A stretch of 64,000 bases of DNA from an uncultured Gammaproteobacteria bacterium. GTDB lineage: Bacteria > Pseudomonadota > Gammaproteobacteria > Steroidobacterales > Steroidobacteraceae. The translations under genes and the position numbers were made by a program. Of this stretch, positions 1 to 64,000 are shown in pieces. The DNA is taken from NCBI GenBank assembly GCA_963786705.1, contig CAWBAG010000027.1, forward strand, positions 1 to 64,000, in the 5' to 3' direction. The notes under the pieces were generated by a model. That model saw only the letters and a list, made by a program, of their open reading frames with translations, was not told where the DNA came from and searched no databases. How positions within the stretch are numbered: position 1 is the stretch's first letter; the number at the start of each line of letters is the position of its first letter.

Positions 1-236
1 ACCAGGAATGTCACGGCGCCACCGACGCTGGGGAACGCCTTGCCCAGGGCAACGTAGCTGTAGGCCGCCAGGCCCGCGACAGCCCCGCCGATCGCAAAAG
101 ACAACGGCATCGCGGACCCGGAGATGCCGGCGACGACGCCGAGAATGGAGAAGATTCCCGCGCCGATCATCCCACCGACGCCGATACTGATCGCTGCGAC
201 AAGGCCGATGTTCGAATTCCCCGTCTTACTCGTCAT
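1..236 (-). CDS. amino acid (APC family) permease, N-terminal part, gene runs off the 5' edge
   Basis: The reverse-strand translation from ATG at 236 gives MTSKTGNSNIGLVAAISIGVGGMIGAGIFSILGVV..., a typical APC transporter N-terminus. There is no stop inside the window. Confidence 0.55.
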   Translation of the reverse strand, partial: MTSKTGNSNIGLVAAISIGVGGMIGAGIFSILGVVAGISGSAMPLSFAIGGAVAGLAAYSYVALGKAFPSVGGAVTFL

Positions 237-561
237 CGCGACTCCCATCGACCCCGCTCGCCGCACGGACCTCGATCGTCACCTGCCACGGTTCGGTCGG
301 GGATGCCACTGGGCAGGGGTCCGTTCGGCAAGTCCGACGAATGACCGGGAGGTCACCCCCTCGCGCTGCCCCTTCGCGCACGGTGCTTGATGCCGAGTGT
401 GGTGCTTGCGTCCGGTTGCCACAACACCAGCGCCCACCGCCGAAGCGGTGGGCGCTGGGACGACGGGAAGCCCGCACGGCCGCGGGGCCAAGTGATCCTG
501 ATTCCGCAGCGGCTCGGTGTTCCGAGGTCGAGGCGGGAATCTGGGTCCCGACCGGATTGGC

Positions 562-2257
562 TCAGTTGCCTGCCAGGCTGATCAGGTAGTCGACGTCGGA
601 GGGCTGCAGGCCCTTGAGCAGCGACACGAAGATGTCCGAGAACGACCGCACGGGGCTCACGTACCACTGCTCGTCCACCTGGACCGTGACGATGCCCAGC
701 CCGACGATCTGCTGGAACTCGCGCTTGATGATGTCGACCATGGTCGGGTCCAGGTCCTGGCTGCCGCCGGCCTGGGCGATGAAGTCCTCGATGGTCGACT
801 GGTCGAGGGTCTGCGTCTGACCGTCAAGATCGACGGTCAACGAACCGGCAGCCGGGTCCCGGGTGATGGTCGCGGTCTGGCCCTGTGCACTGACGGTCAG
901 CGAGGCCAGTGAGACCTTCTTGCCGCCGGTCACGTCGCTGACCGTCCAGCTGGCTTTCTCGACGGTGAAGCCCAGGTCGCTGACGCCGGACGTCAGGTTC
1001 GAGGTGTCGATGTTGTCGACCAGCAATGTGCCGTAGTCGTGCAGCACGCCCATTTCGTCGGGGGCGGTGAGCGCGATGACGTCCTTGATGTTGCCTTCCG
1101 ATGCCTTCTTGATGAACGCGTCGACCGCGGCCTCCGGTGACGGCGAGCCGATGGCCGCGATCCGGTCGGCTGCGGTGGGGTTGGGCAGCCCGGCCTGATG
1201 GGCGGCGTTGTCGGCGATCGAATAGAACAGGCTGACGTACCACGCTCCGTCGCGCTGCACCGTGGCGATCCGGATCGGTCCGCCGTTGCTGGAAACGGCG
1301 TCGGCGATATTGAGGGTCTGGCTCTGCGGTTCGGCCTGGCTGATCTGGTCGGCGAACTTGCTCTTGATCTTGTCGCTCAGCGGGAGCTGATCGGGGTTGC
1401 TGACGATGGTGACCGTTCCGCCGGTCAGCTTGACGACCCGGAGGTTGTCGTTGATCGTCTCGTCGGTCGGGTCAACGGTAAGTCCCGAGACGGTGATCGA
1501 CGTGCCGGTCAGCGACGTGGTCGACGCCGGACGGCCCGAGCACGTCAAGTCGCTTCAGCTCGGAGAGCACGTCGGCGTTGAGGTCGGTGAACAGCGAGGC
1601 CTCGGCCGGGTCCAGCTGACCGGCGAGCCCGATCGGGTCGGAGTTGCTCAGCGACGTGAACAGCGCGTTCACCGCCGCCTGCGGGCTCTCCTGACCCGAC
1701 GCCGACTGGGTGTCCCGGATCGCGAAGAACCAGACGCCGGCGCCGGCCAACAATGCCACCACCACGGCGATGGCCGTGACGATCACCGGCGTGCGGTTTT
1801 TCGAGGCCGGCGCCGACGGTGGGGTCTGCGGTTGCCCGGGCTGCTGCCAACCCTGCGGGCCGGTGGGTTGCCCGGGCTGCTGCCAGCCCTGCGGACCGTG
1901 GGTTGCTCCGGGCTGCTGCCAGCCCTGCGGACCGGTGGGTTGCCCGGGCTGTTGCCAGCCCTGCGGGCCGGTGGGTTGTCCGGCTGCTGCCAACCCTGCG
2001 GACCGGTGCGGCTGCCGGGCTGCTGCCAACCCTGCGGACCGGTGGGCTGCCCCGGGCTGCTGCCAACCCTGCGGGCCGGTGGGCTGCCCCGGCTGCTGCC
2101 AACCCTGCGGACCGGTCGGCTGCCCCGGCTGCTGCCAACCCTGCGCACCGGTCGGCTGCCCCGGCTGCTGCCAACCCTGCGGACCAGTCGGCTGGTGCGG
2201 GCTGCTGCCAGCCAGGCGGTGCGGGTTGCCGTGGATCGCCCGGCCCGTAGGGCGCAC
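562..2257 (-). CDS. Pro/Gln-rich repeat protein with one TM anchor and a large extracytoplasmic domain; interrupted by a frameshift near 1500-1550
   Basis: ORFs 1472..2257 (PTGPQGWQQPGQ repeats plus TM VIVTAIAVVVALLAGAGVWFFAI) and 562..1548 continue each other in different frames. Confidence 0.5.
1822..2226. repeat. about 11 tandem copies of a 36-bp unit (ggctgctgccaaccctgcggaccggtgggctgcccc) encoding PTGPQGWQQPGQ
   Basis: Period-36 repetition is directly visible in the nucleotides; the units are slightly degenerate. Confidence 0.85.
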
Positions 2258-2462
2258 CGCTATTTCCCCCGCCCTGATTCCCCCCGACCGGATACCCCCC
2301 GATGTGCCCGCCTTGGTCGCTCACGAGTAGTGCCATCCTTCCTGGTTCCGGTCCACGGAACGTCTCCGGCGCATCTGTCAGCCCCGCCGTCGAGGCCTGG
2401 CCAGGAGCACCCCCTGCCCACCTGGATACTCCTGATGGCCGTATCCCATTGTGAGGCATGTC

Positions 2463-3048
2463 TCAGCCGTTTGGTTGTGGTCTCGGGCCCGAATTCCGCC
2501 AGACGCCGATGATCAGCCAGGCTCCGCCTACGGTGAGCAACATTCCGCCGGCAGACGTCACCGATGGCCCTATCGGGTCGACCTGAACGCCGATCGCGCC
2601 GCCACCACTGACGGCCAGCAACGCCAGCGACACCGCGGCCATGGCGACGCCGAGCAGCACACACAACCCGCCGGCGACCGCCCACCGGCGGAGCAGGGCG
2701 GCCACCACCGGCGTCGCGCACAACAGTCCGATGCAGCGGCCAACCCGCCACCAGTGAGCCCAACACTCCGTCGCCGGCGATTCCGAGTCGATCGATCATG
2801 CCGGTCACCGCGTAGCTGGAGCGCCGAACCTGCCCGGAGACGACCCACGGCAGGAATGAACCGATCAACGCAAGGACCAGGCCGGCGGCGGCGAACACCA
2901 GCGCGGCCACCCTGCCGGCATGGGTCGTGGGCCGGTTTTCGAGCGCAGGAATCACGGGACCAGTGTCGAGGATGATCACGCTGCGTAGAAATTCAGTGAC
3001 GTTCGTCATGGATGTCCGAATTGGGACTAATGGGTTTAGCGTGACCAC
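2463..3048 (-). CDS. small integral membrane protein (Rv1476-like position upstream of ripA), frameshifted near 2750
   Basis: The N-terminal part is in the ORF 2260..3048 frame up to ...SLVAGW. The C-terminal TM-rich part is in the ORF 2463..2723 frame. Confidence 0.5.
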
Positions 3049-3163
3049 TGGTCAATAGGGGGAACAAAGTGGCAAGGTTCTCCTGGCGTGTCGTGTTGAC
3101 ATCGTCACGGTCGGTGTTCGACCGGTCATCCGCGAGAACTCGATCGCGGGGGAGGAGCCTCAA

Positions 3164-5014
3164 GTGCCCGTCCGCACCCGTCCCCGCGGCATCGCGTCGA
3201 TGCTGGGCGGCGTCGTACTGGCCTGGATCGTGGTCGTCGGCACGGCGCTGCCCGCCGGTGCTGTGCCACCCCCGCCGGACAACCCGTCTGATGATCAGAT
3301 CCAGGCCGGACAGAGCCAGGTGGCGACCTCCGCCGCCGAGGTCGGCCGGCTGTCCGGGCTGGTCAGCAAGACCGAAGGCGACATCGAGCGCCTGAAGAAC
3401 GACATGGAGCTGAAGGCGGAGCTGGCGAACAAGGCCGCCGTCGATCTGCAGGTGGCGCAATCCGATGCCGCGGCCGCGTCCGCCGCCGCCACCCAGGCGC
3501 AGGCGGACGCCGACGCCGCAGGCAAGGCCATCGACGACGCCAAGGAAAAGGCTGCCGCGTTCGCCGCCGCGTCGTTCCGCCAGGGCTCGGTGCTCGGGTC
3601 GATGACGGCGCTGATGGACTCCGGCAGCGCCACCGAACTGCTGCAGCGGCGGGAATTGCTCGACCAGGTGTCCGGAACCCAGCTCAACGCGATCGCCAAC
3701 CTGGAGAGCAGCCGGAACCACAAGGCCAACCTCGACTCGGCCGCCCGCGCGGCACTCGATGCCGCCAACGCCGCGCAGGCGCGGGCGGACCAGGCCAAGA
3801 CGGATGCCGACAGCGCCCAGCAGCAGGCCGCCGACTCGCTGGCCGCGGGTCAGGACCAGCTCACCGCACTGGAAGGCCAGCTGACCCAGCAGCAGAACGA
3901 CTACCGGGCGGCACTGTCCAACGTCGCCGGTTTGCAGCAGCAGCGGGATCAGTACAACCAGTGGCTCGCGCAGAAGCAGGCCGAGGAAGAGGCGGCCCGC
4001 AAGGCCGCCGAGGAGGCCGCCCGGCAGGCTGCCGCGGCCGCCGCGGCGAGGCCGCCCGCCAGGCCGCCGAAGCGGCCGCCGCGCAGGCAGCGGCGCAGGC
4101 AGCGGCGCGAGCAGGCCGCCGCCGAGCAGGCCGCGGCGGAACGGGCCGCCGAGCAGGAAGCCGCCGCGGAGCGTGCGTCGGCCGCGCAGGAGGCCAGCAA
4201 CCAGGCCGCCCGGGCGGCTCAGCAAGCCGGCCGCCAGCTCCGAACCGTTCTACGACAGTTGCGACGCAGCGCGGGCCGCCGGTCGCGGCCCGATCTCCCA
4301 GGGCGAACCCGGCTACCGGTCGGCCCTCGACCCGAATGGCAACGGCGTCGCCTGCGAGGGCACGGTGGCCGTCGCCGCAGCCACCGCAAGCTCTGACAGC
4401 GTGTACTACGACAGCTGCGACGCGGCCAGGGCGGCCGGCGGGGGCCCATCGCGCGCGGAGAGCCCGGCTACCGGGCCGCCCTTGATCCCAACGGCAACGG
4501 CATCGCGTGCGAGGGCACGGCCGCGACCACCCCGGTCTCCACCGCCGTCCGGACGGTCGGCTCGTCCAGCTCGTCCAATTCCTCCCGCGGCCAGCAGGTG
4601 GTCGACGCGGCGATGGCCTACCTGGGCACGACCTACGCGTGGGGCGGCGGCGACTACTCCGGTCCGTCGCAGGGCATCCACGACGGCGGCGTGGCCGACC
4701 GGTACGGCGACTACAACAAGATCGGGTTCGACTGCTCGGGGCTGGCGCTGTACGCCTGGGCCCAGGTCGGGGTGTACCTGCCGCACTACTCCGGGTACCA
4801 GTACACGGGCCAGCCGCAGGTCTCCAGCAGCGACCTGCAGCCCGGTGACCTGGTGTTCTACGCCTACAACACGTCCGATCCGAGCACCATCCACCACGTG
4901 GCGATCTGGATCGGCAACGACCAGATCATCGAGGCGCCCAACTCCGGGTCCTCCGTGAAGATCTCCACGATGTACTGGAACGGGTTCATCGGCGCGTCAA
5001 GACCGGGCGGCTGA
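3164..5014 (+). CDS. ripA: RipA-like peptidoglycan endopeptidase with an N-terminal coiled coil, two Excalibur-like Ca-binding motifs and a C-terminal NlpC/P60 domain; two frame changes
   Basis: Coiled-coil Ala/Gln-rich region at 3164-4200. The motif YDSCDAARAAG...DPNGNG(V/I)ACEG occurs twice around 4230-4500 in another frame. The NlpC/P60 catalytic region is at 4598-5014 (FDCSGL...HHVAIW). There is a signal peptide at the N-terminus. Confidence 0.75.
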
Positions 5015-5032
5015 CCGGCGTCGGCATCGAGG

Positions 5033-5787
5033 GTGAGCGAGACACGGCCGGCCGCCGCGATCGTGCTGGCCGGCGGCCGCGGCCACCGATTGGGCGGCGT
5101 CGACAAGCCGGAGCTGGCCGACCGCGATGGGCGGACCCTGCTGGACCGGGTGCTTGCGGCTGTGTCCGGCGCACTCGTGGTCGTCGTCGGACCGCCGCAG
5201 GAGCCTGCCACCGGGGATCCTCGCCGTGCGTGAGCACCCGCCCGGTGGCGGCCCGGCGGCCGCGGTCGCCGCGGGATGCGCGGCCCTCGCGGAGTCACCG
5301 GTCGGCCGTCGGGCCGCATCGCCTGACGATGCCCTGGTCGCGGTGCTGGCTGCCGACCTGCCGAACGTCACCGCACGTACCGTCCGAGCGGTTGTGTGTG
5401 GCAGTGCACAGCGATCCCGAAGCCGGCCGGTGCCCTGCTGATCGACTCGTCCGGTCGGCGTCAGCTACCTTGTCGGCGTGTGGCGGCAGGGCGCGCTGCT
5501 CGCGGCGGTCCGGCAGCGTGAGAGCTGGTACGGCGCTTCAGCTGAAAGAGCTTCTCGCGCCGATCCCGGTCGTCGAGTCGCCGGCGCTCGGCGATGAGTT
5601 CGTCGACATCGACACACCGGATGACCTGCGCAGATGGCGGGAGAAGGTGACGCAGGGTAGCGAACCATCGGGCGACGTTCGACGATCAGTACACAGCGCT
5701 CGCCGGCCGGGCCTGGACAATGGTCGGCGTGACGCACCTGACGAGGAGGAGCCGGTGACCCCAGAGTCATTGAGCCCAGAAGGATAA
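5033..5787 (+). CDS. mobA: molybdenum cofactor guanylyltransferase MobA-like, split over three frames
   Basis: AAIVLAGGRGHRLGGVDKPEL is at the N-terminus, VLAADLPNVTA in the middle and LKELLAPIPVVE...DEFVDIDTPDDL at the C-terminus, each in a different frame. Confidence 0.6.
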
Positions 5788-5793
5788 CAGGGA

Positions 5794-6868
5794 TTGACCA
5801 GAGGATTGACCCGGCGTCAACCAGTGGGAGCGGGACGGCCGGCGGTCGGGCGGGCGCGCACGGGCCAACCGGTGCACACCCCGGCCGGCGACGCGGCCCT
5901 GCTGGAACGCACCGTCTTCGAGGTCAAGCGGGTGATCGTCGGGCAGGACCGGCTGGTCGAGCGGATGCTCGTCGGGTTGCTGGCCAAGGGACACCTGCTG
6001 ATCGAGGGCGTTCCCGGGGTGGCCAAGACGCTGGCCGTGGAGACGTTCGCCCGGGTGGTCGGCGGGACGTTCTCCCGGATCCAGTTCACCCCCGACCTGG
6101 TGCCCTCGGACCTGATCGGTACCCGGATCTACCGCGTCGGCCGCGAAGCAGTTCGACATCGAACTCGGCCCGGTGGTCGCCAACTTCGTGCTCACCGACG
6201 AGATCAACCGGGCGCCGGCCAAGGTGCAGTCGGCGCTGCTGGAGGTGATGGCCGAGCGGCATGTGTCGATCGGCGGCAAGACCTTCCCGATGCCCGACCC
6301 GTTCCTGGTGATGGCCACCCAGAACCCGATCGAGAACGAGGGCGTGTACCCGCTGCCGGAGGCGCAGCGCGACCGGTTCCTGTTCAAGCTGCTGGTCGGG
6401 TACCCCGAACCGGACGAGGAACGCGAGATCGTCTACCGGATGGGCGTTGTGCCGCCGGTGGCGCAGCAGGTGCTGCCGGTCGGCGAACTCGTCCGGCTGC
6501 AGAACGTCGCGTCCAACGTCTTCGTGCACCACGCCCTGGTCGACTACGTCGTCCGGTTGGTCTTCGCGACCAGGACACCCGCCGAGCACGGGCTCACCGA
6601 GGTCGCCGGGTGGCTGTCCTACGGCGCGTCCCCGCGCGCCTCGCTCGGCATCATCGCGGCGGCCCGCGCGCTGGCGCTGGTGCGCGGGCGTGATTTCGTG
6701 GTGCCGCAGGACGTCATCGACGTCTCCGCGGACGTGCTGCGCCACCGGTTGGTGCTGTCCTACGACGCCCTCGCCGACGGCATCCCCGTCGAGGTGATCC
6801 TGGGGCGTCTGCTGCAGGCCATTCCGCTGCCGCAGGTCAGCCCCTACACCCACCCCGGTGCAGCGTGA
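5794..6868 (+). CDS. moxR: MoxR-family AAA+ ATPase, frameshift near 6130-6145
   Basis: Walker A GVPGVAKT is present. After the frame change the sequence continues with GPVVANFVLTDEINRAPAKVQSALLEVMAERHVSIGG... Confidence 0.8.
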
Positions 6869-7850
6869 TGAGTGCTCCCAGCCGTGGCTGATGCTCGTGC
6901 AGCCCGGGGTGATCAGCACCTCGGATCCGGCCAGGCTGGACGCCGCGCTGGCCACCCTGGAACTCACCGTCCGGCGGCGGCTGGACGGCCTGTTGCAGGG
7001 CAACCACCTCGGCCTGGTGCCCGGTCCCGGCACCGAACCGGGGGATGCCAGGGTCTACAACCCGGGTGACGACGTGCGCCGGATGGACTGGTCGGTGACG
7101 GCCAGGACCACCGAGCCGCACATCCGGCAGACGGTCGCCGACCGTGAGCTGGAGACCTGGCTGGTCGCCGACCTCTCGGCGTCGCTCGACTTCGGCACCA
7201 CCGGTTGCGAGAAGCGGGATCTGGTGGTGGCGGCGGCCGCCGCCGTCGGTCACCTGACCAGGGGCGGCGGCAACCGGATCGGCGCGATCGTGGCGACCGG
7301 GGCGGGTATCACCCGGATCCCGGCGCGAGGTGGACGCCCCGCGCTGCAGCACCTGCTGCGCGCGCTGGCCGCGACCCCGCGCACCGGGCCCGGCGACCGC
7401 GGCGATCTCGCCGTGGCGCTGGAACAGCTGCGCCGGCCGCCGCGACGCCGCGGGTTGGCCGTCGTGATGTCCGACTTCATCGGCCCGCTGAACTGGGAAC
7501 GGCCGCTGCGGGCACTGTCCGGGCGGCACGACCTGCTCGCCGTCGAGGTGCTCGATCCCCGGGATCTGGAACTGCCGGACGTCGGCCTGGTGACCCTGGT
7601 CGACCCGGAAACCGGTCGCACCAAAGAGGTTTCCACCACCGCCCAGCTGCGGTCGGCGTTCGCACAAGCCGCCGCGGAGCACCGGGCGCAGGTCGACGTC
7701 GCGCTGCGCCGGGCCGGCGCCGCCCACCTGGTGCTGCGCACCGACCGGGACTGGATCGCCGACGTGCTGCGGTTCGTGATGGGTCGCAAGCGCGGCTGGA
7801 CCGGCGCGGCCACCAGCCCGCCGGTGGCCCGTGCGGGGGAGGCCTGGTGA
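6858..7850 (+). CDS. DUF58 protein (MoxR partner)
   Basis: A 330-aa intact ORF overlaps the moxR stop, which is the typical MoxR–DUF58–VWA arrangement. Confidence 0.75.
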   Translation: MQRDECSQPWLMLVQPGVISTSDPARLDAALATLELTVRRRLDGLLQGNHLGLVPGPGTEPGDARVYNPGDDVRRMDWSVTARTTEPHIRQTVADRELETWLVADLSASLDFGTTGCEKRDLVVAAAAAVGHLTRGGGNRIGAIVATGAGITRIPARGGRPALQHLLRALAATPRTGPGDRGDLAVALEQLRRPPRRRGLAVVMSDFIGPLNWERPLRALSGRHDLLAVEVLDPRDLELPDVGLVTLVDPETGRTKEVSTTAQLRSAFAQAAAEHRAQVDVALRRAGAAHLVLRTDRDWIADVLRFVMGRKRGWTGAATSPPVARAGEAW

Positions 7851-8816
7851 ACTTCGCCTACCCGTGGTGGCTGGCCGCAGGCGTCGTGGTGATCGGACTG
7901 GGCGTCGGCTATCTGCTGGCCCAACGCCGCACCCGACGGCACACCATGCGCTTCGCCAACCTCGAGTTGCTGGAGCGGGTGGCGCCGCGCCGTCCGGGCC
8001 GATGGCGGCACCTGCCCACCGCGCTGGTGCTCACCGGACTGGTGCTGCTGACCGTCGCGCTGGCCGGCCCCACCGCCGACGCGAAGGAACCGCGCAACCG
8101 GGCGACGGTGATGCTCGCGATCGACGTGTCGCTGTCCATGAAGGCCACCGACGTCACCCCGAACCGGCTCGCCGCCGCACAGGAGGCGGCCGGCCAGTTC
8201 GTCGACGACCTGACCCCAGGGGTCAACCTCGGCATCGTGTCGTTCGCCGGGATCGCCACGGTCCTTGTCACCCCGACCACGGATCGAGCCGCCGCACACC
8301 AGGCGATCGACGGACTGACCCTGGACGAGCGGACCGCGACCGGCGAGGCGATCATCTCGTCGCTGCAGACCATCGAGCTGTTCTCCAAGACCATCTCCGG
8401 TCCCACCGAGGCCGGCGAGTCCGCCGCACCACCGGCCCGGATCGTGCTGATGACCGACGGCAAACGCACCGTCGGGCGCACCGAGCAGGACGCCGCCGCA
8501 GCGGGCCGCCGACGCCAAGGTGCCGGTGTCGGTGATCGCGTTCGGCACCGACCGCGGATCGATCGTGGTCAACAACGAGGAGGTCGAGGTCCCGCTGGAC
8601 ACCGAGGCCATGCAACAGATCGCGCAGATCTCCGGCGGAGATTTCCACACCGCCGCGACCTCGCAGGAACTCAAGTCGGTCTATTCGCAGCTCGGCGAGC
8701 AGATCGGGTACGAGGTCAAGCAGCGTGACGTCTCCCGCCCCTGGATGATCGCGGGCACCGCGCTGGTCATCCTTGGCGCCGCGGCCGCGCTGACGGTGAC
8801 CACCCGAATCCCCTGA
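7847..8816 (+). CDS. VWA-domain membrane protein (BatA-like), frameshift near 8500
   Basis: GTG start gives VNFAYPWWLAAGVVVIGL with 2 TM segments. The VWA motifs AIDVSLSM and LMTDGKRT are present. The C-terminus continues in another frame as VPVSVIAFGTD... and ends with a TM helix. Confidence 0.75.
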
Positions 8817-52641: not shown

Positions 52642-52644
52642 GCG

Positions 52645-53672: not shown

Positions 53673-54503
53673 TCAGCGATTGCGGCGACCGGCGATGACG
53701 ATGGCTGCGGCCAGCATGCCGAGCACCATCAGGGCGGGAACTGCAGCCGCGAACACGGAATAGTCGAAACGATAGCGTCCCGATGCGGGGTCGTAGACCG
53801 AGCAGTACAACCTCACCCGCTCGATGAGGCCTCGCACGGAGGGGCGTTCGAGGCTGCGACCGAGCAGCAGCCTCCTGAGCGGTTCGACCAGTTCCGGCGG
53901 CGCGAATTCCGGCCCGTAGACCTGCTGCGCCACCTTGCCGTCGGCGTCGAGCACCGTCACCTGCGCGACGTGATCGAAGCCGCCGGGCGTCGCGACCCAC
54001 GTGAACCCGACGTCGTCTGCGAGGCCGCGCACCGTGGCCGCATCCGCGCTCGCGAAGTACCAGTCCGGGTCGTCGATGCCGCGGTCGCGCCCGTACGACC
54101 GCATGCGCTCGGGCGTGTCGTGCTCCGTGTCGAAGCCGACCGTGAGCACGGCGAAGCTGCGTGCACCGAGCGCCTCACGCGCCGTCCGCACGACCTCGCG
54201 CAGGTGCAGCGTCGAGCCCGAGCAGATGCTGTAGCAGTTGGTATAGACGAGGCTCAGCACCACCGGACGTCCCCGCAGCTCCGCGAGGCTGAGTGGCCGC
54301 CCGTCCTGGCCGGTGAATGCGTGGTCGCGCGCGACCCGTCCGATCGCCGCCTGGCTCGTGCGCAGCGCCGCGGCATCGGCGTCGTTGGTTCCGGCCAGCG
54401 CCGCGCCGCCGTGCGCGGCGAGCAGCGCCGCGAGGCCCGCGCCGCAGACGATGCGGGCCCGCCGCGTCGCAGGTGCCGGCACCGCTTGCGGCGCCCCCGT
54501 CAC
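53673..54503 (-). CDS. sco: SCO1/SenC copper chaperone (copy 2)
   Basis: A signal peptide, the CxxxC region VVLSLVYTNCYSICS and a C-terminal TM are present. The GTG start forms a GTGA overlap with the spoT stop. Confidence 0.75.
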   Translation of the reverse strand: MTGAPQAVPAPATRRARIVCGAGLAALLAAHGGAALAGTNDADAAALRTSQAAIGRVARDHAFTGQDGRPLSLAELRGRPVVLSLVYTNCYSICSGSTLHLREVVRTAREALGARSFAVLTVGFDTEHDTPERMRSYGRDRGIDDPDWYFASADAATVRGLADDVGFTWVATPGGFDHVAQVTVLDADGKVAQQVYGPEFAPPELVEPLRRLLLGRSLERPSVRGLIERVRLYCSVYDPASGRYRFDYSVFAAAVPALMVLGMLAAAIVIAGRRNR

Positions 54504-56656
54504 GCGAGTGTCCGCGACACCTTGAGTACTTCGGGCATCGCGCGCACGGCCCGGATCACGCTTGCGAGCTGCTTGCGGTCGTGCACGTGCAACTCGAAGA
54601 TCAGTGTCGACGTGTCGAGGTCGCGTTCGACGACGGACACCCGGTCGATGTTGGTCTGCGTGCCGGCGATGGCGGAGGCGACCGAGGCCAGCACCCCCAT
54701 GCGGTTGGTCACGTCCACGCGGATCTCGACGTGGAACAGCCGGTCGGTCGCGGGTTGCCAGGTGACCGGGATCCACTTCTCGGGTTGCTTGCGGAAGGAC
54801 GAGAGGTTGCCGCAGGCCTCGCGGTGGATCACGACGCCGCGCCCGCTCGAGAGGCTCGCGAGGATCGGGTCGTTCGGAATCGGGAAGCAGCAGCGCGCAT
54901 AGGTGACGACGAGCCCTTCGGTGCCGGCGATCGCGAGCGGGCCGGCGGTGCCTTCGGCGACCGCCTCGGCGTCCGCGGGCAGCAGGCGTCGCGCGATGAA
55001 CGGCGCAACGCGCTCGCCGAGGCCGATCTTCTCGTAGAGCTCGTCGGGTGTGCGCAGGCCGAGCTCCGCCACGACGCCGGCGATCGATTCGGCGGGAATC
55101 TTGCGCAGCGTCAGTGCGAATTCCTCGAGCGCCTGGTTCAGCAGCCGCTTGCCGAGCTCCACCGCCTCGCCGCGCTTCAGGTTCTTCAGGTACTGGCGGA
55201 TCGAGGCCCGCGCCTTCGCGGTGACGACGAAATTGACCCACGCGGGATTCGGCGTGGCGCCCTTCGCCGTGATGATCTCGACGGTCTGGCCGTTGCGCAG
55301 CGGGGTGCGCAGCGGCACCAGGCGCCTGTCGACCTTGGCGGCCACGCACCGGTTGCCCACGTCCGTGTGCACGGCATATGCGAAGTCGACGCACGTCGAC
55401 CCGCGCGGCAGGCGCCGGATCTCGCCCTTGGGCGTGAACACGTACACCTTGTCCGGGAACAGGTCGACCTTGACGCTCTCGAGGAATTCCTCGGGGTTGC
55501 CGCCCTGCTGGATGTCCACCAGCTGCTGCAGCCACTCGCGCGCGCGATCGCTCTGCGCGCCCGCGTCGGTACGGCCGCCTTCCTTGTACTGCCAGTGGGC
55601 GGCGATGCCGGACTCCGCGACCCGGTGCATGTCCTCGGTCCGGATCTGCACCTCGATCGGCGTGCCGTTCGGCCCGAACAGCGTCGTGTGCAGCGACTGG
55701 TAGCCGTTCACGCGCGGGATCGCGATGTAGTCCTTGAAGCGGCCGGGCATCGGCTTGAAGACCGAGTGCACGACGCCGATCGCGCGGTAGCAGGTGTCGG
55801 CCTTGTCCACGACGATGCGGAAGCCGTAGACGTCCACGATCTCGTTCAGCGAGACCTTCTTGCGGCGCATCTTCTGGTAGATGCTGTACGCGTCCTTTTC
55901 ACGGCCCTCGATGCGGGCGGCGATCCCGGCGCGCTCGAGCGCCTCGAGCAGCGAGGCCGCGATCCGCCCGACGAACTGCTTCTGGTTGCCCTTCGCGGTC
56001 TTGACCGCCGTCTCGATCACCTTGTAGCGCCGCGGATAGAGCGCGCGGAAGCCCAGGTCCTCGAGCTCGCGCTTGATCGAGTGCATGCCGAGCCGGTTCG
56101 CGATCGGCGCGTAGATGTCGAGCGTCTCGCGCGCGATCGTGCGCCGCTTGGCCGGCGGCATCGCGCCGAGCGTGCGCATGTTGTGCGTGCGGTCGGCCAG
56201 CTTGACCATGATCACGCGGATGTCGCGGACCATGGCCAGCAGCATCTTGCGGAAGCTCTCCGCCTGCGCCTCGGCGCGGCTGCGGAACTGGATCTGGTCG
56301 AGCTTGCTGACGCCGTCCACGAGCTCGGCGACCTCGTGGCCGAACCGTCCTGTGATCTCGTCCTTGGTGTTCGGCGTGTCCTCCATGACGTCGTGGAGGA
56401 TCGCGGCGATCAGCGTCTGGGAATCGAGCTTGAGGTCCGCAAGCAGGTCGGCGACCGCGACCGGATGCGTGATGTACGGCTCGCCGGACCGGCGCCGCTG
56501 GCCGTCATGGGCCTGGAACGCGAAATCGTAGGCTTCCTGGACCAGCTCGACCTGTTCGGGCGGCAGGTAGGTCTCCAGCTTCGCGACGAGCTGGTTGATC
56601 CCTATGGAGCGTCTTCCGTAGGGCAGCAGGCTGCGCAGGGAAGACGTGACGTCCAC
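54500..56656 (-). CDS. spoT: bifunctional (p)ppGpp synthetase/hydrolase SpoT/RelA
   Basis: An intact 718-aa product with HD, synthetase, TGS and ACT regions. Confidence 0.9.
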   Translation of the reverse strand: MDVTSSLRSLLPYGRRSIGINQLVAKLETYLPPEQVELVQEAYDFAFQAHDGQRRRSGEPYITHPVAVADLLADLKLDSQTLIAAILHDVMEDTPNTKDEITGRFGHEVAELVDGVSKLDQIQFRSRAEAQAESFRKMLLAMVRDIRVIMVKLADRTHNMRTLGAMPPAKRRTIARETLDIYAPIANRLGMHSIKRELEDLGFRALYPRRYKVIETAVKTAKGNQKQFVGRIAASLLEALERAGIAARIEGREKDAYSIYQKMRRKKVSLNEIVDVYGFRIVVDKADTCYRAIGVVHSVFKPMPGRFKDYIAIPRVNGYQSLHTTLFGPNGTPIEVQIRTEDMHRVAESGIAAHWQYKEGGRTDAGAQSDRAREWLQQLVDIQQGGNPEEFLESVKVDLFPDKVYVFTPKGEIRRLPRGSTCVDFAYAVHTDVGNRCVAAKVDRRLVPLRTPLRNGQTVEIITAKGATPNPAWVNFVVTAKARASIRQYLKNLKRGEAVELGKRLLNQALEEFALTLRKIPAESIAGVVAELGLRTPDELYEKIGLGERVAPFIARRLLPADAEAVAEGTAGPLAIAGTEGLVVTYARCCFPIPNDPILASLSSGRGVVIHREACGNLSSFRKQPEKWIPVTWQPATDRLFHVEIRVDVTNRMGVLASVASAIAGTQTNIDRVSVVERDLDTSTLIFELHVHDRKQLASVIRAVRAMPEVLKVSRTLA

Positions 56657-56676
56657 GGGTCAGGCCGGTCGGTCGG

Positions 56677-56961
56677 TCAGTCCCCCAACCCGATCTGCGG
56701 CGCGCGGAACTCGCCCATGAACTCGGGCTCGGGGAGGATTTCAGGCGGCGGTGGCGGCAGGTCCGGCTCGTCGAGGATCTCGACGCCGACGTGGCCGGCC
56801 GCGATCTCGCGCAACGACAGCACGGTGACCTTGTCGTTTTCCCAGTCGAGGGTGGCCTCGGCGCCGTTCGCGAGCTTGCGCGCACGACGGGACGCGACCA
56901 GCACGAGCTGGAACAGGTTCGGGACGTTCTGCAGGCAATCTTCGACGGTGATGCGGGCCAT
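56677..56961 (-). CDS. rpoZ: RNA polymerase omega subunit
   Basis: The product begins [30 protein letters not shown]. Confidence 0.9.
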
Positions 56962-57236
56962 GTGCGGTCAATCTTGCGGGGACGAGGGGGCGAGGATAGC
57001 ACGCGAGCTCGAGAATGCGACGTAACCGCCAGACGCGTCCCGGGAAGTCGCGTCCAATCCGGTCATGCTCTGGACTCAGCGATCGGACCATCCGTTGCCA
57101 CTGGAATTTAACAGAATTCCGAGTGCGACGCTTGTCACAGAAACAATCTGGTGGCCCGCTTCGCCGCGCCGCCGATGCTAACGTCCAACGAAAATAAGCA
57201 CCGGCACTCGCTCACCAACCACTTGGAACAGCATCA

Positions 57237-57644
57237 ATGCCCGCCCCGCCCAGGCTGAAATTCAGCAGCGGATTCTCGCTGATCGAACTCATGATCGTAG
57301 TCGCGATCATGGCGATACTGGCGTCGATCGCATTGCCGGCCTACCGCGAATACGTGCGGCGTGGCGCGGTGGAAGAAGCCACGGCGGCGCTCGGCACGGG
57401 CCGCGTCGTGGTCGAGCAGTTCTTCCTCGACAACCGCACCTACGACGGCGCGACCTGCCCGCCGTCCACGGACTATTTCGCGATCACCTGCGAGTTGGAC
57501 CCCACCACCTACACGCTCACGGCGACCGGGTCGGGCACGATGGCCGGGTTCGTCTACACGCTGGACGAATCCGACACGCGCACGACGGCGGGTCCCTGGG
57601 GTGCGGGCAACTGCTGGATTCCGCGCAAGGGCGGCACATGCTGA
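57237..57644 (+). CDS. pilE: type IV pilin (PilE-like minor pilin) with a prepilin leader
   Basis: The leader is followed by the GFSLIELMIVVAIMAILASIALPAY N-methyl-Phe motif. Confidence 0.75.
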   Translation: MPAPPRLKFSSGFSLIELMIVVAIMAILASIALPAYREYVRRGAVEEATAALGTGRVVVEQFFLDNRTYDGATCPPSTDYFAITCELDPTTYTLTATGSGTMAGFVYTLDESDTRTTAGPWGAGNCWIPRKGGTC

Positions 57645-58165
57645 CCGGCGCGCGCAACGGCTACACGCTGGTCGAGGTCATGGTCACGCTGGCGATCTTC
57701 GCCATGCTGCTCGCGATGGGCGTGCCCTCGATGCGCGGCTTCCTCGAGAACGGGCGCATTCGCGCCGCGGGCGAGGCGTGGAAATACGGGCTGACGCTCG
57801 CGCGCAACGAGGCCGTGCGCCTCAACGCGCAGGTCGAGTTCGTGGCCGACGACACTGGCTGGCAGGTCCGGCGTGTTGCGGACGGCACCGTCCTGCATCG
57901 CGGCACCGGACGGGAGGGTCCCACGGACCTGACGTTCACGATGGATCCCGAGGACTCGGATCGCGTCACGTTCGACGCGTTCGGCCGCACGGTCACGACC
58001 AACCCCTCGGACGGCACGATGCCCCTGGTCCAGGTGGACATCGCCTCGGCCCGGCCCCCGGGCACGCTCAATTACCAGCCGCTCAGGCTCCAGTTGCTCG
58101 CAGGTGGCCTCACGCGCCTCTGCAATCCTGCGGCCGATGCCGACGATCCGAGGGCCTGCCTGTGA
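57638..58165 (+). CDS. fimT: FimT/FimU (GspH-like) minor pilin
   Basis: GYTLVEVMVTLAIFAML is present. There is an ATGCTGA overlap with the upstream gene. Confidence 0.75.
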   Translation: MLTGARNGYTLVEVMVTLAIFAMLLAMGVPSMRGFLENGRIRAAGEAWKYGLTLARNEAVRLNAQVEFVADDTGWQVRRVADGTVLHRGTGREGPTDLTFTMDPEDSDRVTFDAFGRTVTTNPSDGTMPLVQVDIASARPPGTLNYQPLRLQLLAGGLTRLCNPAADADDPRACL

Positions 58166-58536
58166 AGCTTCCCACGCGCACGGCGCGCACCCAGCGCGGT
58201 TCCGCGATGATCGAGGTGCTGATCTCGGTGCTGCTGCTGTCCGTCGGCGTGCTGGGCCTGGTGCGGGTGCTCGGCGTCGCGGTCGAGGACGCGGGCGAAG
58301 TCGAATACCGGGCGATCGCCGCAACGATCGCGGATGAGACGATCGGGCGCATGTGGGTCGACCGCGCGAATCTCGCCGACTACGTCGAGACCGATGCCGC
58401 CCTGGCGCAGCTGCCCGCGGGCACCCGCACGGTCACCGTGGCCGGCAACGTCGTCAACGTCACCATCAACTGGCAACCCCCCGGCGAGGACGACGTGCGC
58501 GCGCACGTGGTCGCCGCAACGCTCGCGAGCAACTGA
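58162..58536 (+). CDS. pilV: minor pilin PilV
   Basis: The GTG start forms a GTGA overlap. GSAMIEVLISVLLLSVGVLGL is present. Confidence 0.7.
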   Translation: MKLPTRTARTQRGSAMIEVLISVLLLSVGVLGLVRVLGVAVEDAGEVEYRAIAATIADETIGRMWVDRANLADYVETDAALAQLPAGTRTVTVAGNVVNVTINWQPPGEDDVRAHVVAATLASN

Positions 58537-59642
58537 TGCAGCGTCACCCATACCGCGGCTTCTCCCTCGTCGAGCTGATGGTCGCCGTCGTGCTGGCGAT
58601 GGTCACGGTCCTCGTCGTGATCCAGGTGCTGTCCGTGTTCGAGGCACGCAGGCGCACGACGACCGTCGGCAACGACGCGGAACTCGCGGCCGCGGTCGGG
58701 CTGTTCACGATCGAGCGCGATGTGCGCATGTCCGCCGCGGGGCTCACGATGCCGAGCGGCCTCACGTGCGCGGCCGGCATCAACATCTACTTCGACGGCA
58801 CCACGATCTCGGACGGGGTCAACCTCGCGCCGGTGGAAATCGTCGACGGCGACACGGCACCCGACACGTTGCGGGTGCTGCGCAGCGACTCGAATTTCGG
58901 CATCGCGCCCGCCACGGTCATCAAGGCCATGGGGACGTCGTCCGCGGACGTGACGATCGCGGGCGGCGCCGGTCTGCGCGACAGCGACCTGCTGATCGCC
59001 GGCGGGGCCGACGGCACCAAGGTCTGCACCCTCATGCAGATGACCGCGGACGCGGATGCGACCGGCACGGGCTGGGACCTGAGCCACGACTCGGGCGGCT
59101 CCCTGTACAACCCGCCCGATCCCGATGCCGCATTCACGAACTCGGTCCGCTACGACGTCGGCGACATCGTGATCAACCTCGGCCAGTTCGGCATGCGCAC
59201 GTTCGGCGTCGTCTGCAACGACGGCGGCGCGCCGGCGGACGACAATTCCTGCGACCTCGTCGGCTACAACCCGTTGACGACGCCGGTGGCGCCGACACTC
59301 GCCGACGTCGAGTCGATCGTGCCGCAGGTCGTCGACTTCCAGGTCCAGTACGGCGTGGCGCCCGTGGCCAGCCAGGAAGTCGACTCCTGGGTCGACGCGA
59401 CGGGCGCCACGTGGGCGGCGCCGACCGCGGCGAACGCATCGCGCATCAAGGCGGTGCGGATCGCGATCCTCACGCGCGGCCAGCGCGAGCCGGTCATGGT
59501 GAGCCCGGCCAGCATCGTGCTCTGGGACGCCGGGCAGCCGACCGAGCGCGTGCGCGCCCTCTCCGACGAGGAGCGCCGCTATCGCTACCGGGTGCTCACC
59601 GTGGTCGTGCCGCTCATCAACGTGATCTGGGCGGGTGTATGA
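58536..59642 (+). CDS. pilW: minor pilin assembly protein PilW
   Basis: GFSLVELMVAVVLAMVTVLVV is present. There is a TGATG overlap with pilV. Confidence 0.7.
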   Translation: MQRHPYRGFSLVELMVAVVLAMVTVLVVIQVLSVFEARRRTTTVGNDAELAAAVGLFTIERDVRMSAAGLTMPSGLTCAAGINIYFDGTTISDGVNLAPVEIVDGDTAPDTLRVLRSDSNFGIAPATVIKAMGTSSADVTIAGGAGLRDSDLLIAGGADGTKVCTLMQMTADADATGTGWDLSHDSGGSLYNPPDPDAAFTNSVRYDVGDIVINLGQFGMRTFGVVCNDGGAPADDNSCDLVGYNPLTTPVAPTLADVESIVPQVVDFQVQYGVAPVASQEVDSWVDATGATWAAPTAANASRIKAVRIAILTRGQREPVMVSPASIVLWDAGQPTERVRALSDEERRYRYRVLTVVVPLINVIWAGV

Positions 59643-60304
59643 ACCGGAATATCGATCGAGCAGTGCAGGCGACACGGCAGGGCGGCCTGTCGCTGATCAT
59701 CGTGCTCGTGGCGTTGCTCGTCATCAGTTTCGCGGCGGTCGCGCTGCTGCGTTCGAGCGATACCAGCACGCTCGTCGCCGGCAACCTGGCGTTCCAGAAG
59801 GCGGCCCTCGCGGCCGGCGATGCGGGCACCGAGGAAGCGATCGACTGGCTGTCCGCGAACGCGGCCGACGGCACGTTGTTCGACGACGACGCGGCCAGCG
59901 GTTACTTCGCGACGACCACCGACAATTGCGACCTGACGGGCTCCGGCACGCCGAACGACGACGATGACGACGTCGACTGGGAAGGCTCCGACCCCGGTGA
60001 CGACTGCAACCTCGAGGCGCTCACGGTCACGCCGGACGGCGTCGCCGACGGCTACACGCTGAGCTACGTGATCAACCGGGTCTGCAATTCCGAGGGCGAC
60101 CCGAATGCCATCACGGGCGCCGGCGGCGCGCCGATGGCGTGCTCGCGCGCGGGCGGCGGCGCGAGCGAAGGCAGCACTCGCGGCGGCGGTTCCTACGGCA
60201 ACATTCCCCTGACGGCCGAATCCCAGACCTATTACCGAATCACCACGAGGATCGCCGGACCACGCAATACGGTCCGGTACGTCCAGGCTTTCGTGGTCAT
60301 CTGA
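59639..60304 (+). CDS. pilX: minor pilin PilX
   Basis: GLSLIIVLVALLVISFAAV is present. There is an ATGA overlap with pilW. Confidence 0.65.
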   Translation: MNRNIDRAVQATRQGGLSLIIVLVALLVISFAAVALLRSSDTSTLVAGNLAFQKAALAAGDAGTEEAIDWLSANAADGTLFDDDAASGYFATTTDNCDLTGSGTPNDDDDDVDWEGSDPGDDCNLEALTVTPDGVADGYTLSYVINRVCNSEGDPNAITGAGGAPMACSRAGGGASEGSTRGGGSYGNIPLTAESQTYYRITTRIAGPRNTVRYVQAFVVI

Positions 60305-60314
60305 GGTGGCGACG

Positions 60315-63300
60315 ATGCGCATGAAGACACTGGTTCCGATCACGGTCCTGACGCTGGCCGCATGGCTCGTGAGCCTGCCCGCCACGTCGGCGGACGTCGA
60401 TCTCGCGAGTGGCCCGCTCGTCACCGGCATCAGCAAGCTCGTGCCGCCGAACGTGTTCTTCATCTTCGACGACTCGTCGAGCATGAACTGGGACTACATG
60501 CCGGACTCGGTCGACGACCACGACGACGACAACTGCTTCAAGAACTTCGGCTACAACACGATCTACTACAACCCTTCGATCACCTACAGGGTGCCGAAGA
60601 ACTCGAACGGCACCGACTTCCTGGCCTCGAACACTTCGTACACCGCCGCGAAGGTGAACGGGTTCAGCTCCAGTTCGTCGACGACCGACCTCTCCGACAC
60701 GACGTCGCAGTCGGTCACGACGTCCGTCTCCATCACGCTCGGCAACAATCCGTTCACGACGACGAACGGCAGCCGCAACGTGACCGTCACCCACACCGCG
60801 CACGGCCTCGCCGACGGCACCCGGGTCACCTTCTCCGGCGTGCCCTAATTTCAACGGCATCTCGATCAGCGGCAACTACAACATCACGTATCTCAGCGCG
60901 AACACCTACCGGATCCGCGTCGGCAACAACGCGAACCGCAACGGCAGCGGCGGCGGCGCCAACGTCAGGGTGCAGTGGAACGTCACGACCACCACCGCAG
61001 TCGCGGATTACGGCTGGTACGAGTACACGGGCGATCCCGCTTCGCCGCCGAAAACCTGCGAAGCGGACTCCGAGTACAACTGGCGCTCTCCCTCGACCGC
61101 GGCCGAGCGGTTGAATTTCACGAACTGGTACAGCTACTACCGCACGCGCCTCCTGATGATGAAGTCGGCGACCGGCCGCGCGTTCGCGAGCGTCGACGAC
61201 AAGTTCCGCGTCGGTTACACGGTGATCAGCGAGACGGGGACCAACAGTTCGGGGTTCCTCAAGATCTCGACGTTCGACTCGACGCACAAGGTCGTCCTGG
61301 TACTCGAAACTGTACGGCTCCGGCTGTCCCTCCGGCACCTGCTATACGCCTTTGCGCGGCGCGCTCTCGAAGGCCGGGCGCCTCTATGCCGGCACGCTGG
61401 TGACGGGCAATGACGACCCCGTGCAGTACTCCTGCCAGCAGAACTTCACGATCCTGACGACCGACGGCTACTGGAACACGTCGGACGAGTCGAGCACCTA
61501 CATCGCGAAGCGCGAGGACAATGTCACGGACGTCGGCGACCAGGACGGCGTGACGGGCACGCTGCGCCCCTACCTCGATGCGCTTGCGAAGCCCAATTCG
61601 CTCGCGGACATCGCGATGTACTACTACAAGTCCGACCTGCGCGGCACGGGTTCGATCGGCGGCCTGACCGACGACGGCGAGCGCCTCGACGTGTCGACGA
61701 ACAACGTGCCGGTGGCGGGCACGGATGACGCCGAGCACCAGCACATGACCACGTTCACGCTCGGCCTGGGCGTCGACGGCGTACTGGGTTACGACGAGGA
61801 TTACCTGAACGGCGGCTCCGCCGACTACGAGTCGATCCGCAACGGCACCGGCAGGAACTGGCCGGATCCGCTGACGTCGCCGCTCTCGACGAGCAGCACG
61901 GTCACGGCGCGCATCGACGACCTCTGGCACGCGGCAGTGAACGGCCGCGGCCAGTACCTGAGCGCCGCCAATCCCGACATGCTCGTCGAGTCGCTCGAGA
62001 AGACGCTGGCCGCGATCTCGGTCAAGAACGCCTCGGCCGCCGCGGCCGCGACGAGCAGCCTCGAGCCGGTCGCCGGCGACAAGGCCGCGTTCGTCGCCCA
62101 GTACACCACGGGCCTCTGGTACGGCGACCTCCAGTCGCGCGATATCGACCTGGAGGACGGCTCGCTGTCCGACACGGTGCAACTGGTCTGCCCAGTCGCA
62201 GTTGAATACGAAAGGTGTCCGATTCGTCCGACTCGCGCGCGATCTACACGTTCAGCGCGTCGGCGACGGGCAAGCTGAAGGCCTTCGACTCGACGAACCT
62301 CGCCACCGAAATCGCGGCCGGGTATTTCAAGTCGAGCAGCGCGAACCCCGGCGGCGCGCTCCTGCAGTACGGCACGTGGACGGCCGGCCAGAGGACCGCG
62401 GCGACCGACGACGCGATGATCACGTTCCTGCGCGGCCAGAGCGGCTCCGAGGACGAGGTGTCGAACACCAACCGCCTGTTCCGTGACCGCACGTTCGCGC
62501 TCGGCGACATCGTCAACGCGACGCCCGTGTTCGTGAAGAAGCCGCCGTTCAAGTATGCGGATGCGGGTTACGCCACGTTCGTGAGCGACAACCTCGACCG
62601 CGAAGGCACCGTGTACGCCGGCGCGAACGACGGCATGCTGCACGCGTTCGACGCCGAGACGCGGCGAGGAGCGCTGGGCCTACATCCCGAGCGCCGTGAT
62701 CCCCAACCTCTACAAGCTCGCGGACGCCGGCTACGCGACCAACCACCGGTTCTACGTGGACGGCCCGATCACGGTCGGCGACGCCTACAGCGGCTCGGCC
62801 TGGAAGACGGTCCTGGTCGGCGCGCTCGGCAGCGGCGGCAAGGCGTTCTACGCGCTCGACGTGACGGATCCGGACAGTCCGAAGGCGCTGTGGGAATTCG
62901 GCGTCGCCGAGGACGTCGACATGGGCTACAGCTTCGGCAACGCGATCCTCACCAAGCGACTCTCCGACGGCAAGTGGGTCGTGCTCTTCGCGTCCGGCTA
63001 CAACAACACGACCGGCGACTCGAAAGGCCGCCTGTATGTCCTCGACGCGTTCACCGGCGCCAAGCTGAACGAGATCATCACCGACAACGCCGTGACGAAC
63101 CCCGACGTCAGCGGCATCGCCAAGATCAACAACTGGGTGCTGAGCACGCTGGTGGAGAACTCGACGCAGTACGTCTACGGCGGCGACCTGGGCGGCTCGG
63201 TCTGGCGCTTCGACCTGACCGCGAATTCGTCGCAGCGCATCGGCCGGACCGCAGGGGCCGCGGGCGACCAGCCCATCACGGTGCGGCCCGAGCTGGCCCG

Positions 63301-63913
63301 CGTGCGCGACGGCACGGGTGTCTATCACCGCGTGGTCTACTTCGCGACCGGCCGGTTCCTGGGGCTCGGCGACCTCGCTCCCACCTCGACCTCGAGCACG
63401 GAGGCCCAGGCGATCTATGGCTTGAAGGACACCGGAACGGACCTGGGCGACCTGACCGCCACCGGCGCGGAACTCGTGGGCCAGGCCCTCGATACCAGCA
63501 CCAATCCGCGGACGATCCCGAATCCGATGCCGGTGGACTGGCAGTCGAAGAACGGCTGGTACCTCAACCTGCCGGTCGGCGAGCGCGTCAACGTCGACCT
63601 GCGCCTGCAGCTCGGCACGCTCGTGGCCGTGGCCAACGAGCCCGACGACGACTACTGCTACGTCGGCGGCAGGAGCTGGCTCTACGCGGTCGATTACAAG
63701 ACGGGCGCCGCGATCATCGGGCTGCAGCCCAAGGAAGTCGGGTTCCCGGTCGGTGGTTCGATCGCGACCGGCGTCACGCTGATCCGGTTGCCGACCAACA
63801 AGGTCATCGCGATCGTCACGCAGGCCGACACGACCGTGAAGGCCATGAGCATCCCCGTGGCGCCCGGCACCTCGGCCGGAGTGCGACGCGTCGGCTGGCG
63901 CGAAATCCGTTAG
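60315..63913 (+). CDS. pilY1: PilY1-like tip adhesin (N-terminal vWA-like region, C-terminal beta-propeller), at least 4 frame changes
   Basis: The four pieces are ORFs 60306..60848, 60970..61413, 61352..62278 and 62696..63913, plus an unlisted frame-1 stretch at about 62215-62690. Changes are visible at about 60846 (extra T in CCCTAATTTC), 61290, 62215 and 62660. The N-terminus contains NVFFIFDDSSSMNWDYMPD. Confidence 0.7.
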
Positions 63914-63936
63914 CCTGCCGCGGCGGGCAGCGACGG

Positions 63937-63955
63937 GCCGAGCGATGCGCTCGGC
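63937..63955 (+). terminator. GC hairpin GCCGAGCG-atg-CGCTCGGC 24 nt downstream of the pilY1 stop (no U-tract)
   Basis: A perfect 8-bp inverted repeat is visible in the sequence. Confidence 0.3.
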
Positions 63956-64000
63956 CCTCGCCGCCGGCTGCGGTGAGCAGTACGTCGGGCAGCAGGTCGC

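Follow-up and report, generated by a model that had tools for sequence, protein, structure and literature searches.

Frame disruptions across a 64-kb metagenomic window are very probably consensus errors of a long-read assembly

The first 64,000 nucleotides (nt) of contig CAWBAG010000027.1 (assembly GCA_963786705.1), the stretch that we call the window, carry many genes whose reading frames are interrupted by insertions or deletions (indels) of single bases. Our accepted set comprises ~73 indels that shift the frame, 63 of them insertions and 10 deletions, spread over at least 24 genes. We conclude that they very probably arose as errors in the consensus of a metagenome assembled from long reads (most likely Nanopore-only, with metaFlye and Medaka) and are not mutations. 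A sequence-only reading of the window had proposed error-prone reads as the source; this proposal is strongly supported by indels that are private to the window, by errors of the same kind in sibling assemblies, and by corrected genes that show no nonsense codons and no excess of substitutions.

Census of the frame breaks

Four approaches were combined to find the breaks. A Viterbi model of codon usage, which had learned from the long open reading frames (ORFs) of the window itself, was run over all six coding frames and revealed many same-strand frame switches; these transitions, obtained with no reference, were also insertion-directed. Comparison by blastx with the ORFs of 166 relatives (given below as L and a number) revealed frame junctions with up to 67 supporting loci each, many of them with several supporting loci and zero loci reading straight through. 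Nucleotide alignments to relatives showed that the window's frame breaks are single extra bases relative to every relative. The working event list came from frameshift-aware protein-DNA dynamic programming (DP), performed gene by gene with all of these approaches combined; this kind of alignment was the check that the sequence-only reading had proposed, and it confirmed the frame breaks. Summed blastx scores and greedy blastx tiling chose antisense 'shadow' ORFs, as is typical of high-GC DNA (the window is ~69% GC), and blastx scoring was replaced by reference ORFs selected through the Viterbi frames. A strict local-identity filter on pairwise indels lost true events in dense regions. Detection power was reduced at 18–24 kb and 58–64 kb, where there were no close references, and L003, with a genome of 5.9 Mb and a SpoT at 92% identity, was not syntenic and of little use as a reference. 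Scans of the 64-kb window for tRNAs and Rfam families gave no match.

Insertions made up 86% of the events (63:10, p = 1.6e-10), and the number of affected genes rises to ~30 once weakly supported cases are counted. Where the sequence-only reading had at least 30 genes split by 1-bp breaks, we thus find at least 24 and up to ~30, and the breaks themselves are real and far above chance. Six genes that it had singled out are affected as follows.

45084–47209, − strand: recG, with twelve +1 events (45120, 45241, 45371, 45636, 45676, 45740, 45909, 46153, 46205, 46536, 46804, 46931) and one −1 (47139), from nucleotide alignments to references, L174 included, and DP
42886–44062, + strand: nhaA, with 11 events (42903, 42952, 43017 (−1), 43048, 43073, 43261, 43649, 43749, 43822, 43832, 43863), most supported by 3/3 references; DP against L010
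44138–45005, − strand: ubiA, with ~7 events (44195 (−1), 44344, 44369, 44486, 44492, 44512–44522 (+2), 44569), from nucleotide alignments to references and DP
25695–26554, − strand: ctaB (heme o synthase), with four +1 near 25893, 25966, 26327 and 26448; junctions with 3–17 loci, DP
26631–28339, − strand: cbaA-like oxidase subunit I, with three +1 near 26945, 28135 and 28248; all Viterbi transitions +1
60362–63913, + strand: pilY1, with four frame changes near 60845, 61300–61358, 62211 and 62662; Viterbi

The thirteen changes in recG, 11 in nhaA, ~7 in ubiA and four in ctaB exceed the earlier counts (at least 8, at least 6, 3–4 and at least 3, respectively), and the earlier minima of three for cbaA and four for pilY1 are the numbers that we found. 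The genes that had been described as intact are so: coxA, coxB, coxC, ctaA, spoT, fabG1, inhA and the cytochrome b fusion were confirmed, and no event lies within bioB.

Stitching the pieces together yielded proteins that match their families above cutoff. RecG scored 940 bits against NCBIfam NF008163 in a single stretch (13–679/692), NhaA 508 bits over its full length against NF007111, UbiA 307 bits against TIGR01474 (2–282/282), and CtaB, from five pieces, 221 bits against TIGR01473 (5–280/281). The stitched cbaA-like protein matches the COX1 model over 15–472/504, and its sole reference is distant. For pilY1, distant proteins placed junctions at 61298, 62207 and 62654, a PilC-family match bridges the 62662 junction, and at 60840–60850 there are 4 nt between codons in GTGCCCTAATTTC.

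Comparison with short-read and sibling assemblies

Assemblies of close relatives made from short reads lack the breaks. Six short-read (MEGAHIT k141) contigs encode a FabG1 protein identical to that of the window in DNA that is 96–98.5% identical. Four of these, the short-read contigs L168–L171 (96–98% nt identity), span the VWA site and do not have the +1 at 8498; in L168–L170 the VWA gene call is an intact one of 322 amino acids (aa), and L168 also lacks the +1 at 10901. Further right, L174 (a JGI contig; 92.4% nt identity over 45,600–53,330) has intact genes for COX2, COX1 (586 aa), two COX3, COX4, RidA and RecG (>523 aa), and the ~30 one-base indels in the window region that it matches (45.6–50.8 kb) are all missing from it. 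L006 (94.5% nt identity) shows no indel within called genes over 53.5–58.2 kb, confirming a clean stretch there. The sequence-only reading had reasoned that real decay would leave the same disruptions in independent isolates; the disruptions are not shared, and the short-read relatives are intact.

The same type of error was found in long-read siblings. The nearest relatives of the right part of the window are metagenome-assembled genomes (MAGs) of Steroidobacteraceae, many of them named 'MFD...bin' with Flye-style contig_N names (the Microflora Danica (MFD) long-read catalogue). In an alignment of 14 recG sequences, private 1-nt insertion runs numbered 12 in the window, 14 in L002, 10 in L017, 3 in L001 and 2 in L079, and these four relatives are contig_N/MFD Nanopore assemblies. 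The other nine sequences had zero such runs, except for one in L028; L022 and L034, which are MFD MAGs, had zero. When all aligned genes are taken together, private frameshifts that are not compensated occur at 0.44 per kb in the MFD references and at 0.063 per kb in the others (6.9-fold, p = 1.6e-10). In the regions homologous to 41–52 kb of the window, L002 and L017 (also L001 and L079) carry 1.0–1.4 private frameshifts per kb, mostly +1, and the recG and COX1 gene calls are split in these public Nanopore MAG contigs. The problem thus extends beyond the window's contig.

Once the indels are removed, the coding sequence shows normal purifying selection. After frame correction, we found 0 internal stops in 14,777 aligned codons (four stops were found, all at ORF ends). 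With its frame corrected, recG contains 0 stops over 676 codons, and at columns that are otherwise invariant it has 0 private substitutions, the lowest number among the 14 sequences. Relative-rate tests at codon positions 1+2 assign fewer changes to the window than to L001 or L002 (24 vs 72 for L001). Thirteen real frameshifts in an otherwise perfectly conserved recG are not credible. Natural bacterial indel spectra are deletion-biased, so the excess of insertions (63:10) does not look like mutation, and both halves of the contig, from different phyla (an actinobacterium and a gammaproteobacterium), carry the same +1 signature.

The events are unevenly spread, as the sequence-only reading had observed. 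Counted in 2-kb bins, they have a dispersion index of 5.5 (chi-square p = 2.5e-21); the longest interval with no event measures 11,063 nt (P = 5e-5), and 38 events are packed into 6.3 kb (P < 5e-5). The hot block at 42.3–48.5 kb covers seven adjacent genes on both strands (comF, nhaA, ubiA, recG, ridA, COX4 and a COX3 gene), and two long stretches are clean.

31250–42300: error-free stretch of ~11 kb with coxC, ctaG, coxA, coxB, DUF2244, bioD, bioH/C, bioF and bioB; no frameshift in DP
50790–60840: second clean stretch, ~10 kb, with COX2, SCO1, spoT, rpoZ and pilins; no frame-breaking indel in called genes vs L174 (92%) and L006 (94.5%)

Clustering thus follows regions across gene boundaries and strands, and not particular genes as had been thought. 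Local GC content was tried as a driver of error density and rejected (Spearman rho 0.31, p = 0.09).

Database provenance points in the same direction. Exact matches to SpoT, CoxA, COX2, rpoZ, FabG1, InhA, MarC and the PIN protein of the window all lie on one 302,370-bp NCBI/ENA contig. Proteins of the window, including a truncated COX1, are therefore on the deposited contig, and the frame breaks belong to the public deposit and are not later additions. Long-read MAGs of the Microflora Danica were made from Nanopore reads only, with metaFlye for assembly and a single Medaka round (PMC12313526), and gene-fragmenting indel errors are documented in Nanopore-only and long-read assemblies through truncation of the IDEEL type (Sereika et al. 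2022, PMC9262707; Kastor, PMC12007338). Like these known errors, the one-base consensus indels of the window split or truncate ORFs and are missing from short-read assemblies of the same taxa; the known errors are worse at low coverage according to the literature, and they are also found in other MAGs with Flye-style names, including those of MFD.

On this account, spurious single bases, mostly insertions, would remain wherever the consensus was poorly supported, error-dense blocks would alternate with clean blocks irrespective of gene or strand, and gene callers would split or truncate the genes that were hit. Low or mixed read coverage would be the likeliest source of poorly supported consensus. 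A low-coverage consensus fits the published finding that R10.4 bins below ~40x need short-read polishing (PMC9262707).

Several points weigh against consensus error as the explanation. The short-read comparators are 92–98% identical to the window and hence other clones, and the events at 22–29 kb and in pilY1 come from distant references or from the Viterbi track alone. We infer the platform and pipeline of the window from its relatives and from database provenance, and low or mixed coverage as the most likely cause of the regional clustering. Finally, the error profile is unlike that of textbook Nanopore data, being depleted in homopolymers, strongly biased to insertions and free of substitution errors.

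Insertion signature and alternative explanations

Sequence context was analyzed for the 51 insertions that could be placed at the nucleotide level. Only 13/51 adjoin an identical base, where 41% would be expected from background bases (p = 0.02) and 50% if the inserted base were random (p = 0.0004), and no base run longer than 3 occurs at the insertion sites. The claim that the changes are tied to homopolymers or dinucleotide runs is thus unsupported. Classic accounts of Nanopore errors put the weight on homopolymer deletions and insertions, whereas the window has 86% insertions, 13/51 of those placed beside an identical base, and no substitution errors. On the contig strand the inserted bases are G (21), C (20) and A (10), with no T (A vs T, p = 0.002). 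This asymmetry of A and T is present for genes on either strand. At recG position 45367, the window and the independent assembly L001 share an extra base at one column (GGCG[G]CCTGG vs GGCG[C]CCTGG) that the other relatives do not have, which hints at a context-specific, recurrent consensus error.

These features could point to a reproducible consensus or polishing failure of Nanopore R10.4.1/Flye/Medaka in high-GC DNA, as opposed to random low-depth noise. We hold this possibility tentatively, on the grounds that the errors are almost only +1, avoid homopolymers, add no T, come with no substitutions, fall in kilobase blocks and include one recurrent column. If it is true, a large public catalogue of long-read MAGs would hold many affected genomes, and systematic correction would be feasible.

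Systematic errors of the basecaller or polisher at particular sequence contexts or methylation motifs are unlikely. TCGA overlaps 7 insertions vs 1.7 expected and CTCGAG 3 vs 0.22 expected, and the shared column at 45367 and the strand asymmetry of inserted A over T also favor such an origin. However, the enrichment of TCGA, CTCGAG and CGAAG is nominal only and is lost after correction for 72–228 tests, most sites have no common motif, and errors in two unrelated organisms argue against a single methyltransferase.

A mixed-strain consensus that kept both alleles of a third-codon single-nucleotide polymorphism in tandem would account for the insertion bias and for the absent homopolymer context, and several sites look like tandem synonymous alleles (GTC/GTG giving GTCG at 12933, GCG/GCC giving GCCG at 8496 and GAG/GAA giving GAAG at 6147). 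This model predicts no insertion between codon positions 1 and 2, yet 7/12 recG insertions lie there, with 2 between positions 3 and 1 and 3 between positions 2 and 3. On codon phase we therefore reject tandem third-position alleles as the source of the +1 insertions, and we consider this origin very improbable.

Three pairs of nearby indels, noted by the sequence-only reading as restoring the frame, are all present.

3165–5011, + strand: RipA-like protein with Excalibur and NlpC/P60 domains; +1 at 4224, −1 at 4447; L167 alignment, DP
31136–31900, − strand: SURF1; −1 at 31214, +1 at 31246; 3/3 references, DP vs L176
47185–47572, − strand: ridA; −1 at 47317, +1 at 47376; 10/10 and 7/10 references; 126 aa intact in L174

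Each pair restores the downstream frame, and the surf1 pair is isolated within an otherwise clean region, as might be expected of compensated frameshift mutations under selection. Evidence from ripA and ridA makes such an origin highly improbable. In the 222-nt segment between the ripA indels, the Excalibur repeat (EPFYDSCDAARAAG...GEPGYR...LDPNGNGVACEGT) is encoded only in the shifted frame, 22 of the 31 positions that differ from L167 are third codon positions of that shifted (reference) frame, and within the segment a stop codon interrupts the flank frame. The segment between the ridA indels reads straight through in short-read L174 and in nine other relatives. The corresponding surf1 segment is 32 nt, below a testable size. 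The pairs are very probably not selected compensations, and the frame conservation of ripA also counts against the suggestion that they signal real decay.

Real genome decay, in which the split genes would be true pseudogenes and recG and nhaA would be decaying faster than others, was the alternative offered by the sequence-only reading. In its favor, many genes are broken, and the disruptions are concentrated in some genes and absent from others. Genuine reductive decay with many pseudogenes is found in Mycobacterium leprae and recent symbionts, and the window resembles them in that a large fraction of its genes is interrupted by frameshifts. Unlike those genomes, it has no nonsense codons (zero internal ones in 14,777, despite 73 frameshifts), its non-synonymous rate is not raised, and its indels are not deletion-biased (86% are insertions); codon usage and the GC content of third codon positions are kept, the damage is regional, and the disruptions are not shared with relatives. 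In addition, recG lacks private substitutions and changes more slowly at codon positions 1+2, close short-read relatives carry the genes intact, the hot block covers seven unrelated adjacent genes on both strands, two unrelated organisms on a single contig show a common pattern, and recG in L002 and L017 is also full of private +1 insertions, at other sites. With intact short-read relatives, 0 stops and no relaxed selection, we reject decay as extremely improbable.

Programmed ribosomal frameshifting or transcriptional slippage, in favor of which there is nothing beyond the frame changes themselves, has a negligible probability, as homologues keep one frame at every site and up to 13 shifts would be needed in a gene with no common slippery motif.

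The contig join, the other affected genes and consequences for the record

By homology, the deposited contig appears to be an inter-phylum chimera, Nakamurella-like to ~20.9 kb and of Steroidobacteraceae from ~29.5 kb. The first ~20.9 kb are actinobacterial: the best named relatives of InhA are Nakamurella, and the gene order ripA-mobA-moxR-DUF58-VWA-fabG1-inhA-Rv1486c-DUF3097-nfeD-Band_7-panC-panB... is syntenic and 84% identical with L167. The stretch at 29.5–58 kb is syntenic with contigs of Steroidobacteraceae. Exact look-ups placed proteins of the left and right parts on the same 302,370-bp contig. Tetranucleotide composition gave no chimera join, both parts being ~70% GC, and it was homology that located the join.

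20896–20912: left chimera breakpoint; a Rv1476-like actinobacterial gene is cut and joined inside a MarC gene, 93 nt past the MarC start

This join truncates two genes, which argues for mis-assembly and also fits a thinly covered contig. Like known chimeric metagenome contigs, this one has two phyla on one contig, a breakpoint that cuts genes and a mosaic of short fragments (20.9–22.3 kb). Positions 20912–21590 are 96% identical to L177, whose neighboring genes (glnK-amtB, DUF4124, comM) have a proteobacterial look, and the match stops at 21,590. The mosaic at 21590–22330 holds a truncated PIN/VapC fragment at ~21600–21800 (+ strand) and a PIN C-terminal piece at 21894–22074 (− strand), and may represent further breakpoints or a toxin-antitoxin island. 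To the right of the MarC piece, a direct repeat of ~30 nt (gttggtcgctgtcgcgacactgacgtt) lies at 22210–22270.

The other affected genes of the left part are the following.

565–2241, − strand: hypothetical protein (554 aa in L167); +1 at ~1528–1532 (Viterbi switch 1552, extra C at 1532 in the L167 alignment, DP 1528)
2466–3051, − strand: membrane protein (181 aa in L167); +1 at ~2733; Viterbi, L167 alignment, DP
5020–5640, + strand: MobA-like NTP_transf_3 gene; at least 6 indels (5198, 5303, 5375, 5420, 5464, 5541), of moderate confidence, with L167 (84% nt) as the single reference and the Viterbi coding signal lost there
5869–6868, + strand: MoxR AAA ATPase; +1 at 6144–6148; 3/3 references, DP
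6884–7850, + strand: DUF58 protein; +1 at 6893; L167 alignment, DP
7847–8816, + strand: VWA/BatA protein; +1 at 8496–8499; not in short-read contigs L168–L171
10637–11453, − strand: Rv1486c-like protein; +1 at 10901–10908; L168, L167, L089, L091, blastx, DP
11750–12496, + strand: DUF3097 protein; +1 at 12234–12236; 5 protein-level loci, L167 alignment, DP
12625–13060, + strand: NfeD; +1 at 12933; 7/7 nucleotide references, 67 protein-level loci
14403–15230, + strand: DUF2520 protein; +1 at 15039 and 15109; L167 alignment, DP
17350–18580, + strand: M20/M28 peptidase; +1 at 17471 and 17665, possibly 17402; Viterbi +0 to +1 to +2, blastx, L167 alignment, DP

The +1 at 12933 shifts NfeD into a wrong frame that stays open into Band_7, and the 684-aa 'Band_7' ORF (12625–14679) is thus a false NfeD/Band_7 fusion; in relatives, NfeD (143 aa) and Band_7 (425 aa) are two genes. 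Against L167, the − strand gene shows many indels of 2–33 nt in repeat units (CCGGGCTGCTGCCAGCCCTGCGGACCGGTGGGTTG-like) of a Pro/Gly-rich repeat region at 1800–2260. Real variation in copy number or collapse of the repeat could account for these differences, which were left out of the frameshift count. The DUF3097 call of L167 (12241–12774, 177 aa, C-terminal domain only) looks truncated relative to 11750–12496 of the window, and L167 may have an indel of its own near window position 11963.

The remaining affected genes of the middle and right parts are these.

24906–25591, − strand: SCO1/SenC-like protein; +1 near 25276–25288; Viterbi, 3 blastx loci, DP
42111–42850, + strand: ComF-like protein; +1 at ~42304–42309 and ~42781; 9 loci, DP
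48081–48780, − strand: COX3-like subunit of the second oxidase; +1 at 48331, −1 at 48512, +1 at 48532; L174 gene intact, 231 aa
49487–51246, − strand: COX1 of the second oxidase; +1 at 50780; 27 loci; L174 gene intact, 586 aa

The truncated COX1 fragment, of 420 aa, is itself deposited as a protein of the 302,370-bp contig. The intact cytochrome b fusion (23273–24838, − strand) is a 521-aa protein in which an N-terminal, ExtP-like cytochrome b domain is combined with two 4Fe-4S motifs and, at the C terminus, a domain resembling FlpD/MvhD. Its architecture is unusual, we found no close reference for it, and it adjoins a bacteriohemerythrin gene and a ba3-type oxidase/ctaB/SCO1 cluster.

The frame disruptions are not a biological feature, and no gene is shown to be decaying. 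What they change is the public NCBI/ENA record, in which at least 24 genes within 64 kb are mis-annotated as truncated, split or falsely fused, as exemplified by the NfeD-Band_7 ORF and the COX1 fragment; such fragments pass into counts of pseudogenes, pathway calls and protein databases. An actinobacterium is joined here to a gammaproteobacterium, and inference of gene transfer or metabolism from the bin would therefore be wrong. The insertion-biased, non-homopolymer signature may aid polishing and quality checks of long-read MAGs. The value of these findings is that they warn of poor data quality in this record, and possibly also in sibling long-read MAGs.

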